A stretch of DNA of 64,000 nt from an uncultured Methanosarcinales archaeon (GTDB lineage Archaea; Nanobdellota; Nanobdellia; Woesearchaeales; CAYMBN01). A program made the position numbers. Below are positions 27,001-36,000 of this stretch, one piece after another. The stretch is taken from positions 1 to 64,000 of the forward strand of contig CAYMBN010000006.1 of NCBI GenBank assembly GCA_964388715.1. Reading direction: 5' to 3'. Positions within the stretch are counted from its first letter, which is position 1, and every line of letters begins with the position of its first letter.

Positions 27001-30000
27001 TTATCTGAAAATACTGTTGTGTTTGGATAGTTTTGAGCAGAAGAAATATTTTGAATTGAAATGTTTAATTCTTTGTACAGGTTTCTTAGGTTGTTTATTT
27101 TAGAGCAAGTTTGATTTAATTCAAAGGTTGTTTGATCTGAATGTTCTTGTATTGATGGATGTTGGATACAATTGCCTGTTAAATTACAGATTAAGTCATA
27201 GTTTACGTTGAGTGAGAGTTCTTTCTCAAGAGCTTGTTTTTTTGTTACTTCTTTTATTGAGAAAGAAAGAGAAGTAATAATACTCGCTACTTCCCTTATA
27301 CTATTTTGTTTTAGAGTGAAATCATTTTTTGTTTGAAATATGCTAATTACTTGATTAAATTTTTTGATAACATCATTTATTTGTGTGATTAGGCTTTCAT
27401 TGATTGTAAATTGGTTTTTAAGTTGTGTTAGTTGATCTTTTACTGTGGTTAAATCAGTAATAAGTAAGTTGTATTGATTTATTTTGTTTGATAAATTATT
27501 GTTTAGTTCTGAAAATCGTGCTTCTATTTGGGTTATGTCTGAATTTGCTTTGTAGAATCCTTTTTCAAGTTTGAAATAATCTTGTTGATCCCATGTTTCT
27601 TGTAAATCTTTTACATTTTCTAGTAGTTTTGAAGATATGTTTTTTATTTCTAGATTTTCTTTGATTATTTGGTTTATATTGAGTGTTTGGTTTAGTTCTT
27701 GGATTGCTTGATCAATTACAACTTGCTTTCCATGAAGGTTACTTTGTCTTTTTAATAAAAAACCAATTAATTCATTGAGTTTGTTTTTTAATTCTTTTTC
27801 TGCTTCTGTTAAACTTCTATTAACAATTATAAGGATATTTCTTGTAGTTGGCACTTCACTTGTGTGACAAAGTAGTGATCTTATACTATGGCAATCCATG
27901 GAAAATTTGTATAAATCAATACCTGTTCCAATATTTGTTGATTTTATTAAATAATTTCTTTTAGAAGCTTTACCAGGGATAAGTTTGAAAGTTTCATTTT
28001 TTAGGATTTGGTTGTCATTAATGTTAGTAAAAGTTGATTCACATTGTGCTGTGCAAAAAGGGTTTGTAGTAACTTTTGCTTTAAATGTGATGTTTTCTTC
28101 TTGATTGTGGATAAGTGGGAGAATTTCCTTGTCTACTTCAAGTTTAACTATAATATCATTACCTAGAAGGAAATTAACAAAAAGGTAGATTTTTGCTCCT
28201 GAAGCTGTGAAAAGAAGAATTATTAAGAGGATTATTAAAATATAAAGAATTTTGTGTTTTTTAGAGAAAGGTATCTTTTCAACTATTTTAACCATCTTTT
28301 TTGCCATAATGGATAGAAAGAAAAAAGAATATTTAAAAGCTTCGTAAAGATAGGGAAAAAATTAATAAATCTGTGATTTTTAAGTGTTAGTATGGCAATT
28401 CCGTGGACAAAAAAATATCAACCTAAGAAGATTAAGGATATTCTTGGACATGAGTCTGAGATGAAGCAGTTAAAGAAGTTTGTTGAGGATTTTAAGAAGT
28501 CTAAGAAGAAGGCTGTTATTATCTATGGGCCAAGTGGAAGTGGGAAAACAGCTGCTGCTTATACTTTGGCAGAGAGTGTTGGTTATGAAATTATTGAAGT
28601 AAATGCTTCTAATTTTAGAAATCCTGAACAGCTTAAAAATAGTGTAGGTGCTGCTTCTAAACAGATGAGTTTGTTTTCTAAAGGTAAAGTAATTTTAATT
28701 GATGAAGTAGATGGTTTATCAGGGAGAAAAGATAGAGGTGGTATTAAAGAAATGATTAAGTTGATTGATAATAGTGCTTTTCCAATAATTCTTACATCTA
28801 ACAATCCGTGGAATACTAAGTTTGCTACATTGAGGAAAAGATGTGAAATGGTTCAGTTTAGATCTTTAGATTATAATACTGTTTATGAATTACTTAAGAA
28901 TATTTGTGAAAATGAAAAAATTAAATATGATGATTATTCTCTGAAAAGTTTAGCTAGAAGAGCTGGTGGGGATTTAAGAGGTGCAATAACTGATTTGCAG
29001 TTATTAACAAATAAAGATAATATGCTTGATAAAAATAGTCTTGATGAATTGTCTGGAAGAGCGCAGACAGAATCAATGTTGTCTGCGTTAGTTAAAATAT
29101 TTAAAACAACTGATCCTAATATTGCAAATAGAGCTTTGGATAATGTTAATGAGGATCTTAATCAAGTTATGTTATGGATTGATGAAAATTTACCTATTGA
29201 GTATGATAAACCTAAGGATTTAGCTGAGGCATATGATAAATTATCACGAGCAGATGTTTTTCGAGGTAGAATTAGAAGATGGCAACATTGGCGTTTTATG
29301 GTTTATATGAATAATCTTTTAACAGCTGGTATTGCTGTTAGTAAAGATGAAAAAAAGCATGGTTTTGTGCAGTATAAACCAACGTCTCGTCTATTGAAAT
29401 TATGGTGGGCAAAGCAAAAGAATATTAAGAAGAAGGCAATTGCTGCAAAAATAGCAGAACATACACATTCTTCTGTGAAAGAAACTATTAAATCAGCTCT
29501 TCCTTATTATAAAGTAATTTTTAAGAAAAATAAAGAAATGAGTGCAAAGATTGCTAAACAACTTGATCTAAATAAGGATGAAGTTGCTTGGTTAAGGAAG
29601 TAATTATTTCTTAAAAGTTGTTACTGGTCGTGATTGTGTGAGGTATATTTTTCTTCCTTCAACAGCCCATTCTATGTCTTGTGGAAATTTATAGTGTTTT
29701 TCTACTTTTTTACCAAGTTCTGCTAATTCTGTTATTTCATGGTCAGTTAAAACTTGTTTTTCTGGATCAGGGATGTTTTTTCTTGTGTTTTCTCCTGTTT
29801 CTTCATCTCTGAAAAGGCCCCATTCTTGTTCATTAACTGTTTTTTCTTTTATGTTAAGAGAATGTTTGTTAACAATGTATAAGTCTGGGTTGATGCTTCC
29901 TGAGACTACTGATTCACCTAATCCAAATGCTCCTTCAATTATGATTTCATCTTCACTGTTTGTAACTGGGTTAACAGAAAATAGAACTCCTGCTTTGTCT

Positions 30001-33000: not shown

Positions 33001-36000
33001 GATAAATTTTAATAAATAATTGGTTCAATTCCTTTTCTTCTTTTTTCAAATAACTTGATTCTGTAGGAGTTGATAATAAAACAAAAGTTTTAGTGGGATT
33101 AATATCTAACCCTTTTTCTTTAATTCTTTTATCAATAATTTGTTTTGCAAAAGTTGTTAAGTATTCATGTTCAAATTCAAGCATGTTTCCAAAAAAACCG
33201 TATCCATGTACAGGTGCATAGTGATGATAATATTTTTTATATAAATCAGCTAATTCATTGTTTGTTAATTTACTAAAATTCACTCGTCTTAAACTATCAC
33301 AAAACTCTTTCCAATCATTAGAATATTGTTTTAATTCTTTGTTTATTTTTTTATACCATTTAGGATCTGACTTGAGTTTATTAAATATTTCTAAAGCAAC
33401 TTTACCAAATCTTTCTTTTGGGTAAATTATTGTAATTCTTCTATGTTTATAAAAAACTGCACAATTTAATCTTAGTTTATCTTCCCAAATAGTTGAATAC
33501 CTAAGATAACCCACTGTTTGCATAGGAAAAATCCCAAATATTTTTTCGAATAAAAACCATTCTTGTTTCATTTTTACTAGATTAATGTATTTTATTATTT
33601 AAATATTGTTTGTGAAATGTTATTCAAACCGCCAACCACATTTTTGGCATGGTTCTAATTTACTGTTCATGATATTATTGCATTCTCTACATCTTAATAT
33701 GAAGTCAACTTTAATACCATTTTGCCAAATGTTAAAACCACAATGAGGACATTTCTTGACATCGTAATCGTCATCTATAACATTATTACAACGTTTGCAC
33801 CTTCTTAAGTAATGGTTCCAAAGTTTCATTTTTAAACATCATCCCTATATTGATCTATGATGTTAAAACATTGTGTGCAAACTACCATGAATACATTAAA
33901 TACAGGATCTACTGTTACATGGTCCATTATTGTATTACCACATTTTGGGCAAGTGTATTCTGGTTTTGATGGAATTTTGATCACCTTTTTTAGATTGCTA
34001 GTTTAAAACCACTAGGACTAACAAAATGATTATGGCCTGTTCTTAGGAAAAGTGTTTTTTCCTTGTATTCTTTTGTGATTGGATCTTTATATCTATGTTT
34101 TGCTGAAAAGTTTATTCCTTTAACTAATTCAATTGCTTGTTTAATTTCAATTTCCACAAATGAATCAAGTGTTTTTTTCATGTTACTACTTAGCAGTCCA
34201 TTATGATATATAAAATCTAGTTGTAGTGGTTCACTATGACAAAGTTTATATATTAGTATAACCTTATTTAATACATGAAATTGGCTGTTTTACAGAAAGT
34301 ATTGTCAAAGAATGAGGCGTTGGTTTATCTTAAATTGTTAAGGCTTGGAAATGCCTCAGCAAGCCAAATAATTGATGCTACAGGGCTTCACAGGGCGAAT
34401 GTGTATGATGCTCTTGACAGATTAGCTATAAAAGGGCTTGTAAGTAATGTGATAAGAAAGAACAAGAATTTCTTTGAAGCTGCTCATCCTGGCAAGATAA
34501 TTGAAATTCTTGAGGATAAGAAAAAGGTAATTGATGTTGATGAAGAAAATATTAAAGCAGTAATGCCTGAATTAGAGCTTGACTTTAATATGATAAAGGA
34601 AAGGCAGGAAGTACATTATTATAAAGGCAAAGAAGGGCTTAAAACACTTTATGATGAAATATATAAAGGGATTAAACCAAAAACAAAGATGTATGCAATT
34701 GGTGCTATGGGTACAATGCGAGATATCTTTAAGTATAGTTTCAAATCAAAGTGGCTTAAAATGGCTGAGAAAAAAAATGTTAAATTTCATATTTTATATT
34801 ATAGTACAGCAAAAAAAATCCCAAATCTTAGATTTAGTAAAAATCTTGCAATAAGGTTTTTGCCAGAATCTGTAAAATTAACACCCTCAACAACTTATAT
34901 TTTTGAGAATAAGTTTGCAATTGTATCTCTTGATACTATGATTGGAGTACTAATAGAAAATAAAGATATTGTAAGTGTTTATAAGAGTTATTTTGAATTG
35001 ATGTGGAGTGTTTCTGAGGAGAATTAAGCTGCTTCTGCTTCTTCACTGCCTTCATCTGTTTCTTCTGAGTTTTCTTGGTATACTGATTCAAATGGTTTTT
35101 CAGATTTTTCTTTTGGAGATACCTGCACTGTCATTCCCTTGTATGTTACTTTGATTACTTTTTTTCCGTCTTTATTTTCAATGTTAATAACATATTCTTC
35201 TCCTGTGTCAAAAGTGCCTCTAATACTATTTAAATTTCTTTTGCCAAGATATTTTATAAGTGAAGCTTCTACAACAGGTGAGTGACTTACAACAGCTGCA
35301 TAAACTTTTCCATTTAGTTTATCGGATTTTTTAATTATGTCTTCAATTACACTAATTATTCCGTCTCCTGAACTAGGAGATCTGTCAAGAATCTTTTGAC
35401 ATAATTCAGTATTTGACATAGGATTTCCGCTTAATTTTCTTTTTTTCTCTTCTCTTTTAAGATCATCTGGAAAAGGAGCAGGATTTAATCTGTTATCTTG
35501 TCTGTAATTTGAAGCCAAGCCAGCACCTTTGTAAATATTATCAATTGATTGTCTTGTCCTAAACTTCTGAGAATGATAACCAAGAACATGATTACATTGA
35601 TTAATTTCATATTCTAAGTTTTTTCCAGTATTATAAGCATCTTGAAGGCCTGATTTGGAGAGTTTATCAAGAGATTCTTTAGTAACAGGATCTTTTGCTT
35701 TATCATAATGCCTTCTGACTGAAATTATGGTTTGGTATGCCATATTAAGCCTATATAATTCTAAGTATTTAAACTTTTTGATTTTTTACTACTATTAAGT
35801 GATATTTTAGGTTGAGCTTTGTTGTGATTGTTTATCGAGAAAAATTTAAATACTAAAAAAGTAATATATGTCTAAAATGATTAAAAAAATCAATTTAAAG
35901 ATATCACCTGTTGAGTTAGCTAAGAAACTTGATCAAGCTAAAAAGGAAGGAAAAGATTATATTGAAGTTGTTACAGAAGAAGGTAATAAAGTAAGGATCT

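Follow-up and report, generated by a model that had tools for sequence, protein, structure and literature searches.

How can 16 phosphohistidine swivel modules be charged in a genome that has a single free-standing ATP-grasp gene? The question is raised by a 64,000-nucleotide stretch of DNA (the window), in which this gene, g00774, lies beside a tandem double module, g00775. The genome under study (G000; 1,300,152 bp, 31 contigs, 95.75% complete) yielded 17 matches to PF00391, namely 16 grasp-less modules encoded by 15 genes and one full PpsA on contig C17, in which PF02896 is present. PF01326 had two matches, g00774 and the same PpsA, and no third ATP-grasp of this family was found in the whole-genome Pfam search. 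These counts coincide with those of the earlier note, which had reported 16 modules in 15 genes without ATP-grasp and one free-standing ATP-grasp gene, and which had placed g00774 and g00775 exactly where we found their ORFs. Based on sequence comparison, we consider it likely that the modules and g00774 form a split dikinase of the rifampin phosphotransferase (RPH) type, in which g00774 would charge 16 modules of different specificity, including 14 in trans.

Grasp-less modules and the stand-alone ATP-grasp

The relevant genes of the window are the following.

16271..17758, + strand: g00764, single grasp-less module of 495 aa (PF00391 match, ORF, histidine kept)
17755..19038, + strand: g00765, single grasp-less module of 427 aa (PF00391 match, ORF, histidine kept)
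29604..30548, - strand: g00774, free-standing ATP-grasp subunit of 314 aa with PPDK_N only (Pfam), proposed charger
30584..33571, - strand: g00775, tandem double module of 995 aa (two PF00391 stretches, no grasp)
about 32057-33571, - strand: module A of g00775, RPH-like substrate domain plus swivel-histidine domain
about 30584-32056, - strand: module B of g00775, RPH-like substrate domain plus swivel-histidine domain

The genes g00774 and g00775 are situated on one strand with a gap of 35 nt, while g00764 and g00765 overlap by 4 bp. PPDK_N (E 2e-109, residues 16-312) is the sole Pfam domain of g00774, for which an ATG gives 314 aa and a GTG at 30557 gives 317 aa. Its ATP-site residues, i.e., the lysine of GGKGxxLGE, R112, E293, and Q305, are invariant among the 14 grasp domains compared. 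Two PEP-utilizers stretches (E 3e-47) were identified in g00775, each with its swivel histidine kept, and the protein matched neither PPDK_N nor PEP-utilizers_C. The PEP/pyruvate-binding TIM barrel PF02896, which PpsA has, is absent from both g00774 and g00775 in the Pfam search. The 14 modules beyond g00775 are dispersed over 11 loci, and g00775 alone adjoins a grasp.

The swivel-histidine column, GGxxxHA[AS][IV], is invariant in 16/16 modules, so that the claim of a histidine kept in every module holds in the alignment; this is the catalytic histidine of the motif T/SxxGGxxxH of two-component dikinases. No column of the N-domain is invariant across the 16 modules, the mean pairwise identity being 18% for N-domains versus 53% for swivels, and the best paralogous BLAST matches range from 29.7 to 42.7% identity. 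With 6429 clusters (50% identity, E<=1e-3) detected in a set of 1.84 billion representatives, the family of the N-domain is very large; its members are annotated merely as "PEP-utilizing enzyme" and have no Pfam model of their own, and the modules take up 1.66% of the 1.3-Mb genome. The NCBIfam PRK08296 models match the module swivel only, their N-terminal part having no match in the N-domain. PADLOC models of anti-phage defence systems gave no match to the grasp or to the three modules scanned.

Kinship of the modules with rifampin phosphotransferase

A profile of 89 modules aligns to residues 509-866 of RPH-Lm in a single stretch (E 6e-30), and hence the homology extends into the rifampin-binding domain (RIF-BD). 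The match begins at profile position 167; the apex region, as well as the N-terminal ~160 residues of the modules, has no sequence alignment to RPH. The AF2 model of module B (pLDDT 95.7, pTM 0.91) was used for comparison of folds. The top six Foldseek matches of this model are all RPH-Lm (E 1e-13 to 1e-10, TMq 0.40-0.58), and VIA-align of its residues 1-490 with RPH-Lm chain 329-866 gave Z 19.3, with 417-427 residues aligned. Both profile and fold demonstrate that the modules are true homologues of the rifampin-binding and swivel part of RPH, as the resemblance described in the earlier note had indicated.

RPH-Lm (PDB 5FBS/5FBT/5FBU/5HV1; PMC4844700) thus has the fold of the substrate domain and the swivel in common with the archaeal modules, and the proposed archaeal system would follow the same dikinase logic, the two active sites being far apart. 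In contrast, RPH is one chain with the order grasp, RIF-BD, swivel, whereas the archaeal system is encoded by two genes, and its fused relatives have the permuted order N-domain, swivel, grasp. In the profile alignment, the residues of RPH catalytic block 9, Arg666, Glu667, and Lys670, map to K288, A289, and K292 of module B. The Arg666 position is occupied by R/K in 12/16 modules and the Lys670 position by K in 9/16; Glu667, which belongs to the essential Arg-Glu pair of RPH, is not conserved (D/E in just 5/16 modules). Rifampin is not an expected substrate of the modules.

One ATP-grasp and many modules in related genomes

At least 10 swivel matches were observed in 18 of the 200 other genomes of the order that were sampled, with up to at least 27 scored copies per genome. 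The expansion is therefore commoner than the 4 of 60 in the earlier note; it is widespread among CPR bacteria as well as within the order, and G000 is no special case. An ATP-grasp similar to g00774, usually a single one, is present in 17 of these 18 swivel-rich genomes (14 free, 3 only fused to a module), six of the 17 having been judged on open-frame length alone.

Natural fusions with the order N-domain, swivel, grasp are represented by a 793-aa protein of G116 and an 816-aa protein of G076. The 1389-aa protein of G070 consists of two modules and a grasp, and is colinear with g00775 followed by g00774: its residues 82-1042 are 31% identical to g00775 over 991 columns (E 3e-124), and its C-terminal grasp is 51% identical to g00774 (E 7e-113). 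The largest example is a 4201-aa ORF of G167, which comprises eight PF00391 stretches, with 8/8 histidines present, and one C-terminal PPDK_N. In G097, 13 of the 15 grasp-less swivel ORFs (12 with an N-domain that could be detected) are gathered on one strand in a 33-kb cluster, at the end of which lies the only free grasp of the genome. Methyltransferases, acyltransferases, and an adenylating enzyme are interspersed in the cluster, a mixture that suggests chemistry on small molecules. Several modules accompany one grasp in the bacterial operons L097, L101, and L109 as well, and a swivel ORF was found in the flank of 6/6 free-grasp loci among the 80 loci fetched. In G007 and G119, no module was seen up to about 6 kb from the free grasp, and for G076 the same is true of the 7.6 kb that were available.

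These data also bear on the possibility that g00774 serves g00775 only, as a 1:2 split dikinase, while the 14 dispersed modules receive their phosphate from the grasp of the C17 PpsA or from another donor. Such an arrangement would agree with the fact that no other module of G000 adjoins a grasp, and with the sequence affinities of both domains. In sequence, grasp and swivel are most similar to PEP synthase (PpsA) and pyruvate phosphate dikinase, and less so to RPH or HpeI. The module swivels are 38-51% identical to those of PpsA, which scores above RPH (PDB 8a8e, a PpsA, E 2e-24), and g00774 matches 8a8e with E 2e-94 (320 bits). Its match to 9goj is lower (E 2e-53, 185 bits); this entry, the code of which occurs once in the HpeHI paper (PMC12167813), is presumably HpeI. 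Further, the grasp of a 750-800-aa PpsA type from Dehalococcoidia, Micrarchaeota, and CPR is 48-55% identical to g00774. Finally, the 13 grasp-less swivels of G115 (100% complete by markers, 120 contigs) are accompanied by a sole grasp, 57% identical to g00774, which is inside a full PpsA; hence, a free grasp was not found in every expanded genome.

On the other hand, the sole grasp of G116, a genome that has 21 grasp-less swivels and is only 87% complete, forms one protein with a module, and a PpsA grasp was not detected there; moreover, the fusions with eight and two modules and the 13-module cluster each pair one non-PpsA grasp with many modules. In PpsA, grasp and swivel are within one chain, and we know of no case of PpsA charging another protein. 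Charging of the dispersed modules by PpsA or another donor is accordingly considered rather improbable. The one-to-many reading, already put forward in the earlier note, is supported on comparative grounds by the RPH homology, the conserved ATP-site residues of g00774, the fusions, the recurrent single grasp, and the G097 cluster.

Proposed mechanism and comparison with known dikinases

In the preferred reading, g00774 and g00775 would be the two halves of a split ATP-dependent RPH-type dikinase. By analogy with the biochemistry of RPH and HpeHI, the ATP-grasp subunit would bind ATP and charge the swivel histidine of a module; the charged swivel would then swing back to the helical substrate domain of the same module and phosphorylate the bound acceptor, the products being the phosphorylated substrate, AMP, and Pi. 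The gene counts, the clusters, and the natural fusions of relatives suggest that g00774 may also charge the 14 scattered modules in trans. The acceptors would most likely be small molecules with a hydroxyl group.

Two-component dikinases are described in PMC12167813 and PMC12624787, and include HpeHI (Rhodococcus), CreHI (Corynebacterium), AcvAB (Sphingobium), and phenylphosphate synthase PpsAB (Thauera/Aromatoleum); HpeH, CreH, and PpsA are about 45% identical pairwise, according to PMC12167813. Like g00774 and g00775, they combine a separate ATP-grasp subunit with a second subunit, in which an RPH-like substrate domain precedes a C-terminal swivel-histidine domain, and the gene order, module then grasp, is the same. 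A phosphatase gene also belongs to these pathways (HpeD/AcvF; PMC12624787). However, systems of the HpeHI type are 1:1 pairs with which free-living bacteria act on phenolic compounds during the catabolism of aromatics, whereas the system of this DPANN archaeon has one grasp gene for 16 modules and tandem modules strung together in multi-module proteins, and a carboxylase partner is absent. Since split 1:1 RPH-like dikinases (HpeHI, CreHI, PpsAB) have already been published, the one-to-many layout alone is new.

PMC12167813 reports that HpeH alone moves phosphate from 4-phosphoacetophenone to acetovanillone, which raises the possibility that the modules have no ATP donor and instead perform transphosphorylation between phospho-metabolites, or use a small phosphodonor. 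Phosphatase genes beside modules would be in line with such shuffling of phosphate. Yet the HpeH exchange is a partial reaction of a full dikinase cycle, the fusions link modules covalently to a grasp, and none of the 200 sampled genomes has swivels without any grasp, which makes this reading most unlikely.

The PTS is a case of one general enzyme that supplies many specific ones. The likeness of PTS Enzyme I and glucan water dikinase (GWD) to the proposed system concerns architecture and logic only, as their substrate domains are unrelated to the archaeal modules and no homology outside grasp and swivel was found here. In GWD, the substrate-binding domains, the histidine domain, and the C-terminal nucleotide-binding domain follow each other as in the fused archaeal forms (PMC13553574 and a 2026 bioRxiv preprint).

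If true, a dikinase with a shared charger would be a new organization of kinase specificity, in which a single ATP site is combined with numerous exchangeable acceptor modules, as many as eight of them on one polypeptide. Where genome reduction is strong, 15 to 50 paralogues are seldom retained needlessly; hence, the modules probably matter for the handling of metabolites by DPANN/CPR symbionts.

Neighboring regulators and phosphatases

Two further genes of the window are situated upstream of g00775.

34275..35027, + strand: TrmB-family regulator of 250 aa, divergent from g00775 (Pfam TrmB E 9e-13)
35024..35743, - strand: 239-aa protein, uncertain candidate for a diverged histidine-phosphatase fold (weak His_Phos_1)

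G000 contains 9 TrmB matches of at least 50 bits, in agreement with the nine genes reported earlier, and 16 at E<=0.001. Six of the nine strong TrmB genes, including the one at 34275..35027, are within two genes of a module locus; as the share of the genome at such a distance is about 7%, the binomial P is about 1e-5. Seven module genes, rather than the six previously counted, have a TrmB gene within two genes. The number of module genes directly beside a HAD or LMWPc gene is five, as had been claimed. TrmB genes and genes for HAD, LMW-PTP, or His-phosphatase-like proteins recur next to modules, and many modules belong to cassettes with their own TrmB-type regulator and phosphatase. Such cassettes suggest that particular metabolites are phosphorylated in an inducible, reversible or transient manner. 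Simple substrate trapping gives no explanation for a phosphatase co-transcribed with a kinase.

The same neighborhoods might be read as a signaling network in which the acceptors are proteins, with a PTS-like phosphorelay onto the neighboring TrmB regulators or onto phosphatases that form covalent intermediates. Phospho-enzyme intermediates do occur in the HAD, LMW-PTP, and His-phosphatase families, the swivel domain is common to the modules and PTS Enzyme I, and six of nine strong TrmB genes adjoin modules. However, the homology of the N-domain is with RIF-BD, which binds small molecules, and not with the domain of Enzyme I that binds HPr; a TrmB gene is lacking near most modules, and the enzymes accompanying the G097 cluster point to small-molecule chemistry. 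We therefore regard protein acceptors as very unlikely.

A broader extension of the shared-charger reading would join the modules, the single grasp, and the phosphatases into a phosphorylation network of the hub-and-spoke kind, characteristic of ultra-small DPANN archaea and CPR bacteria that live as symbionts. One ATP-driven charger would feed dozens of fast-evolving substrate-specific phosphohistidine modules, and together they would take the place of much of the conventional set of small-molecule kinases with which metabolites scavenged from the host are trapped. HAD, LMW-PTP, and His-phosphatase proteins, with their covalent intermediates, would be integral downstream partners and not simply antagonists. 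This extension is speculative, and we hold it to be unlikely.

The 239-aa protein (35024..35743) is probably, albeit with uncertainty, a diverged protein of the histidine-phosphatase fold, judging from its sequence. A word-index search gave no sequence relatives, and the Pfam match to His_Phos_1 (E 0.064) is below the cut-off, while spanning positions 25-184 of the 194 in the profile. His_Phos_1 accounts for 25 of its 30 language-model neighbor clusters, with a best score of 0.96.

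Module Genes and the Free-Standing ATP-Grasp

The modules considered here combine a helical substrate domain resembling that of rifampin phosphotransferase (RPH), hereafter the N-domain, with a C-terminal swivel-histidine domain (PF00391, PEP-utilizers), and lack an ATP-grasp. The genes in the window are:

16271-17758, + strand: g00764, single module
17755-19038, + strand: g00765, single module
29604-30548, - strand: g00774, 314 aa from ATG, free-standing ATP-grasp with PPDK_N (PF01326) only (Pfam, E 2e-109)
30584-33571, - strand: g00775, 995-aa ORF, tandem double module (A and B) with two PEP-utilizers swivel domains (Pfam)

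The g00775 gene lies upstream of g00774 on the same, minus strand, with a gap of 35 nt. Beyond its two swivels, g00775 contains no Pfam domain above threshold, and the NCBIfam models for PEP synthase, RPH, and PigC/RedH give only partial matches, all far under the cut-offs.

The whole assembly (1.30 Mb in 31 contigs, 95.75% complete) contains 17 matches to PF00391 and two to PF01326. Assigned to ORFs, these are 16 modules in 15 grasp-less genes, one full PEP synthase (PpsA; PPDK_N, PEP-utilizers, and PEP-utilizers_C) on contig 17, and g00774, so that the gene and module counts and the single free grasp reported in the earlier note are borne out. Together, the 15 module genes account for 1.66% of the genome (21.6 kb). 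GC content along the window is flat (0.28–0.33), and hence there is no sign of a genomic island. No tRNA was found in the window and no Rfam match within 28000-36500, while PADLOC yielded no match for the grasp or the three modules scanned.

One ATP-Grasp for Many Modules in Related Genomes

The ratio of grasps to modules was assessed in 200 other genomes of the order, four unpublished ones being counted in denominators only. At least 10 swivel matches were observed in 18 of them, the highest counts being at least 27, and PPDK_N was examined in all 18. Fourteen have one g00774-like grasp, with an open frame of about 290–360 aa, alongside PpsA (eight were checked at the ORF level and six by frame length only), and three have the grasp solely in fusion with modules. 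The remaining genome, G115, has 13 grasp-less swivels, and its only grasp, 57% identical to that of g00774, is part of a complete PpsA. None of the 200 sampled genomes has swivels but no grasp.

Modules were found in the fetched flank of the free grasp in five of the eight genomes checked (G097, G026, G159, G068, and G036), and none in the flanks from G007, G119, and G076. G097 (1.0 Mb, 4 contigs) has 15 grasp-less swivel ORFs, and 13 of them are gathered in a single same-strand cluster of 33 kb (L041-L042, C1:862001-900000), including seven in an unbroken overlapping tandem; the last gene of this cluster is the sole free grasp of the genome, followed by malic enzyme. Outside the order, six of the 80 loci fetched with g00774 contain a free grasp, all six with a swivel ORF nearby, among them bacterial operons in which one grasp accompanies three or four modules. 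In the other 74 loci the grasp is joined to a swivel, mostly in a PpsA of the 750–800-aa type. A possible three-way split is seen in Candidatus Methanodesulfokora washburnensis (L104:4411-8945), where a metallo-beta-lactamase-fold gene, an ORF of 113 aa with a swivel only, two ORFs of unknown kind (394 and 411 aa), and a free 316-aa grasp follow one another on one strand.

The strongest evidence for one charger serving many modules comes from natural fusions of modules with a grasp:

G116, 793 aa: N-domain, swivel, grasp
G076, 816 aa: N-domain, swivel, grasp
G070, 1389 aa: two modules and a grasp
G167, L123:313-12918 (G167:C37), 4201 aa: eight PF00391 stretches with eight histidines, and one C-terminal PPDK_N

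The G070 protein aligns colinearly with the two genes in order: g00775 comes first (31% identity over 991 columns, E 3e-124), then g00774 (51% identity, E 7e-113). In G167, the end of another module is seen just upstream of the 4201-aa ORF. A giant ORF of G007 (at least 5929 aa) with partial PPDK_N matches has only a weak swivel-like match, and was dropped as unrelated.

Given the grasp and module counts, the clusters, and the fusions in relatives, a single charger for many modules is the best reading. On the same grounds, g00774 may also charge the modules scattered elsewhere in this genome. The complex prediction for one of these, g00764, with g00774 and ATP (score 0.17, mark 0.32) speaks neither for nor against binding.

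Sequence and Fold of the Grasp and the Modules

The closest match of g00774 is an archaeal PEP synthase (PDB 8a8e, E 2e-94); the RPH enzyme RPH-Lm ranks second (E 1e-65), ahead of 9goj (E 2e-53), a free grasp of 387 aa. Identity to the grasp of the PpsA on contig 17 is about 40–42%; among other genomes of the order it reaches 57–63% for five free or module-fused grasps and 47–53% for five others. The ATP-site residues of g00774 are invariant across an alignment of 14 sequences. A quick, midpoint-rooted maximum-likelihood tree of 88 grasp domains, whose search was unfinished, places free grasps in at least three well-supported clades interleaved with PpsA grasps. Two types of PpsA occur in the order, one like that of contig 17 and one of 720–800 aa with a grasp 57–60% identical to g00774; the latter is frequent in Dehalococcoidia, Micrarchaeota, and CPR as well.

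Single-sequence searches of solved structures matched the modules through the swivel only, and an N-domain profile of the 16 paralogues retrieved no RPH from PDB sequences, only noise (E 0.012). A deeper profile of 89 family members was needed to reach RPH; it aligns in one stretch to residues 509–866 of RPH-Lm (E 6e-30), extending well into the rifampin-binding domain. Module B was modeled by AlphaFold2 with very high confidence (pLDDT 95.7, pTM 0.91). In a Foldseek search with this model, RPH-Lm takes all six top ranks (E 1e-13 to 1e-10), and VIA-align superimposes model residues 1–490 on RPH-Lm chain residues 329–866 (Z 19.3, rmsd 4.8–4.9 Å, 417–427 residues aligned). The catalytic residues given for RPH, Arg666, Glu667, and Lys670 (PMC4844700), align in the 89-member profile with a semi-conserved basic motif of the modules: the first position is R/K in 12 of 16 modules, the third is K in nine, and the Glu667 position is acidic in only five.

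Relation to Published Split Dikinases

Division of a dikinase into an ATP-grasp subunit and a substrate/swivel subunit is described for HpeHI, CreHI, and phenylphosphate synthase PpsAB (PMC12167813). According to the same source, both subunits are required, HpeH alone performing phosphate exchange only; the pathway of such dikinases includes a phosphatase, as stated in PMC12624787. By architecture, the g00775/g00774 pair is predicted to be a further split dikinase of the HpeHI type. It is not a close relative of the published enzymes, since PpsA is the nearer match, ahead of RPH and 9goj, for both its grasp and its swivel. The comparative evidence supports the earlier proposal of one grasp subunit charging many modules. 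The split type as such is already known, a precedent absent from the earlier note, and the one-to-many layout is the only new part. The literature searched, comprising few subscription journals and no supplements, yielded no account of a module expansion in DPANN/CPR or of a one-to-many dikinase.

Divergence and Spread of the Modules

As paralogues, the modules are old and diverged. The best BLAST matches among them show 29.7–42.7% identity, and mean pairwise identity is 18% for N-domains and 53% for swivels. The swivel histidine is kept in 16/16 modules; all invariant columns of the 16-module alignment fall within the swivel, none in the N-domain. For only three of the 16 modules is a G097 counterpart clearly nearer than their own paralogues, from which the repertoire appears to change quickly; transfer of function by orthology with G097 was dropped for the same reason.

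In all, 6429 clusters (50% identity) match the N-domain profile at E<=1e-3. Proteins with two to four modules are among them, and 1200 of the clusters reach E<=1e-30. Named relatives come from Woesearchaeota, Micrarchaeota, Diapherotrites, and CPR bacteria; their annotations go no further than PEP-utilizing or swiveling-domain protein. The organism was found in eight DNA sequencing runs (marine and seawater metagenomes from two studies), and no RNA run was among the runs listed.

Regulators, Phosphatases, and Other Neighbors

Of the nine strong TrmB matches in the genome, six are at most two genes away from a module locus (chance about 1e-5 under random gene placement). Inspection of neighborhoods also confirmed that HAD or LMW-PTP-like genes directly precede or follow five module genes, often with overlapping stop and start codons. 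The region between g00775 and the divergent TrmB gene contains three small tandem ORFs on the strand of g00775, which fill most of the 703-bp gap:

33620-33829, - strand: putative small ORF, 69 aa, double zinc ribbon
33832-33984, - strand: putative small ORF, 50 aa, one zinc ribbon
33990-34181, - strand: putative small ORF, 63 aa
34275-35027, + strand: TrmB, divergent from g00775

This TrmB is followed by a 239-aa orphan, which by a weak Pfam match and language-model neighbors looks like a diverged histidine phosphatase; in PADLOC, both proteins give weak, chance-level matches only.

Neighbors of modules in G097, G026, and bacterial loci again include TrmB and members of these three phosphatase families (HAD, LMW-PTP-like, and His-phosphatase-like). 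The G097 cluster, besides LMW-PTP-like and His-phosphatase-like genes, encodes five SAM methyltransferases, two hexapeptide transferases, an AMP-binding ligase, PTA, and a Cys/Met PLP enzyme; with this content, small-molecule chemistry fits better than protein signalling. A guess at the substrate from missing kinases (the genome has a single match to PfkB and none to ADP-GK/PFK) was discarded as too thin.

Nop56/58 and fibrillarin genes normally form a conserved archaeal pair. Here, Nop56/58 (15408-16274), g00764, g00765, and fibrillarin (19035-19694) overlap by 4 bp at all three junctions, and hence the two modules appear to be co-transcribed within the Nop56/58-fibrillarin operon. On contig C3 (L006:6645-10873), dnaJ and dnaK flank a module and its HAD partner, and another HAD gene lies past dnaK. 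An RFC/Rad17-like AAA+ clamp-loader gene (28392-29603, +) is convergent with g00774 and directly adjoins its stop codon at 29604. Two large adjoining ORFs of 817 and 815 aa occupy 23355-28307 (-), the latter with an N-terminal hydrophobic stretch and a C-terminal PGAP1/lipase-like alpha/beta-hydrolase domain (Pfam).
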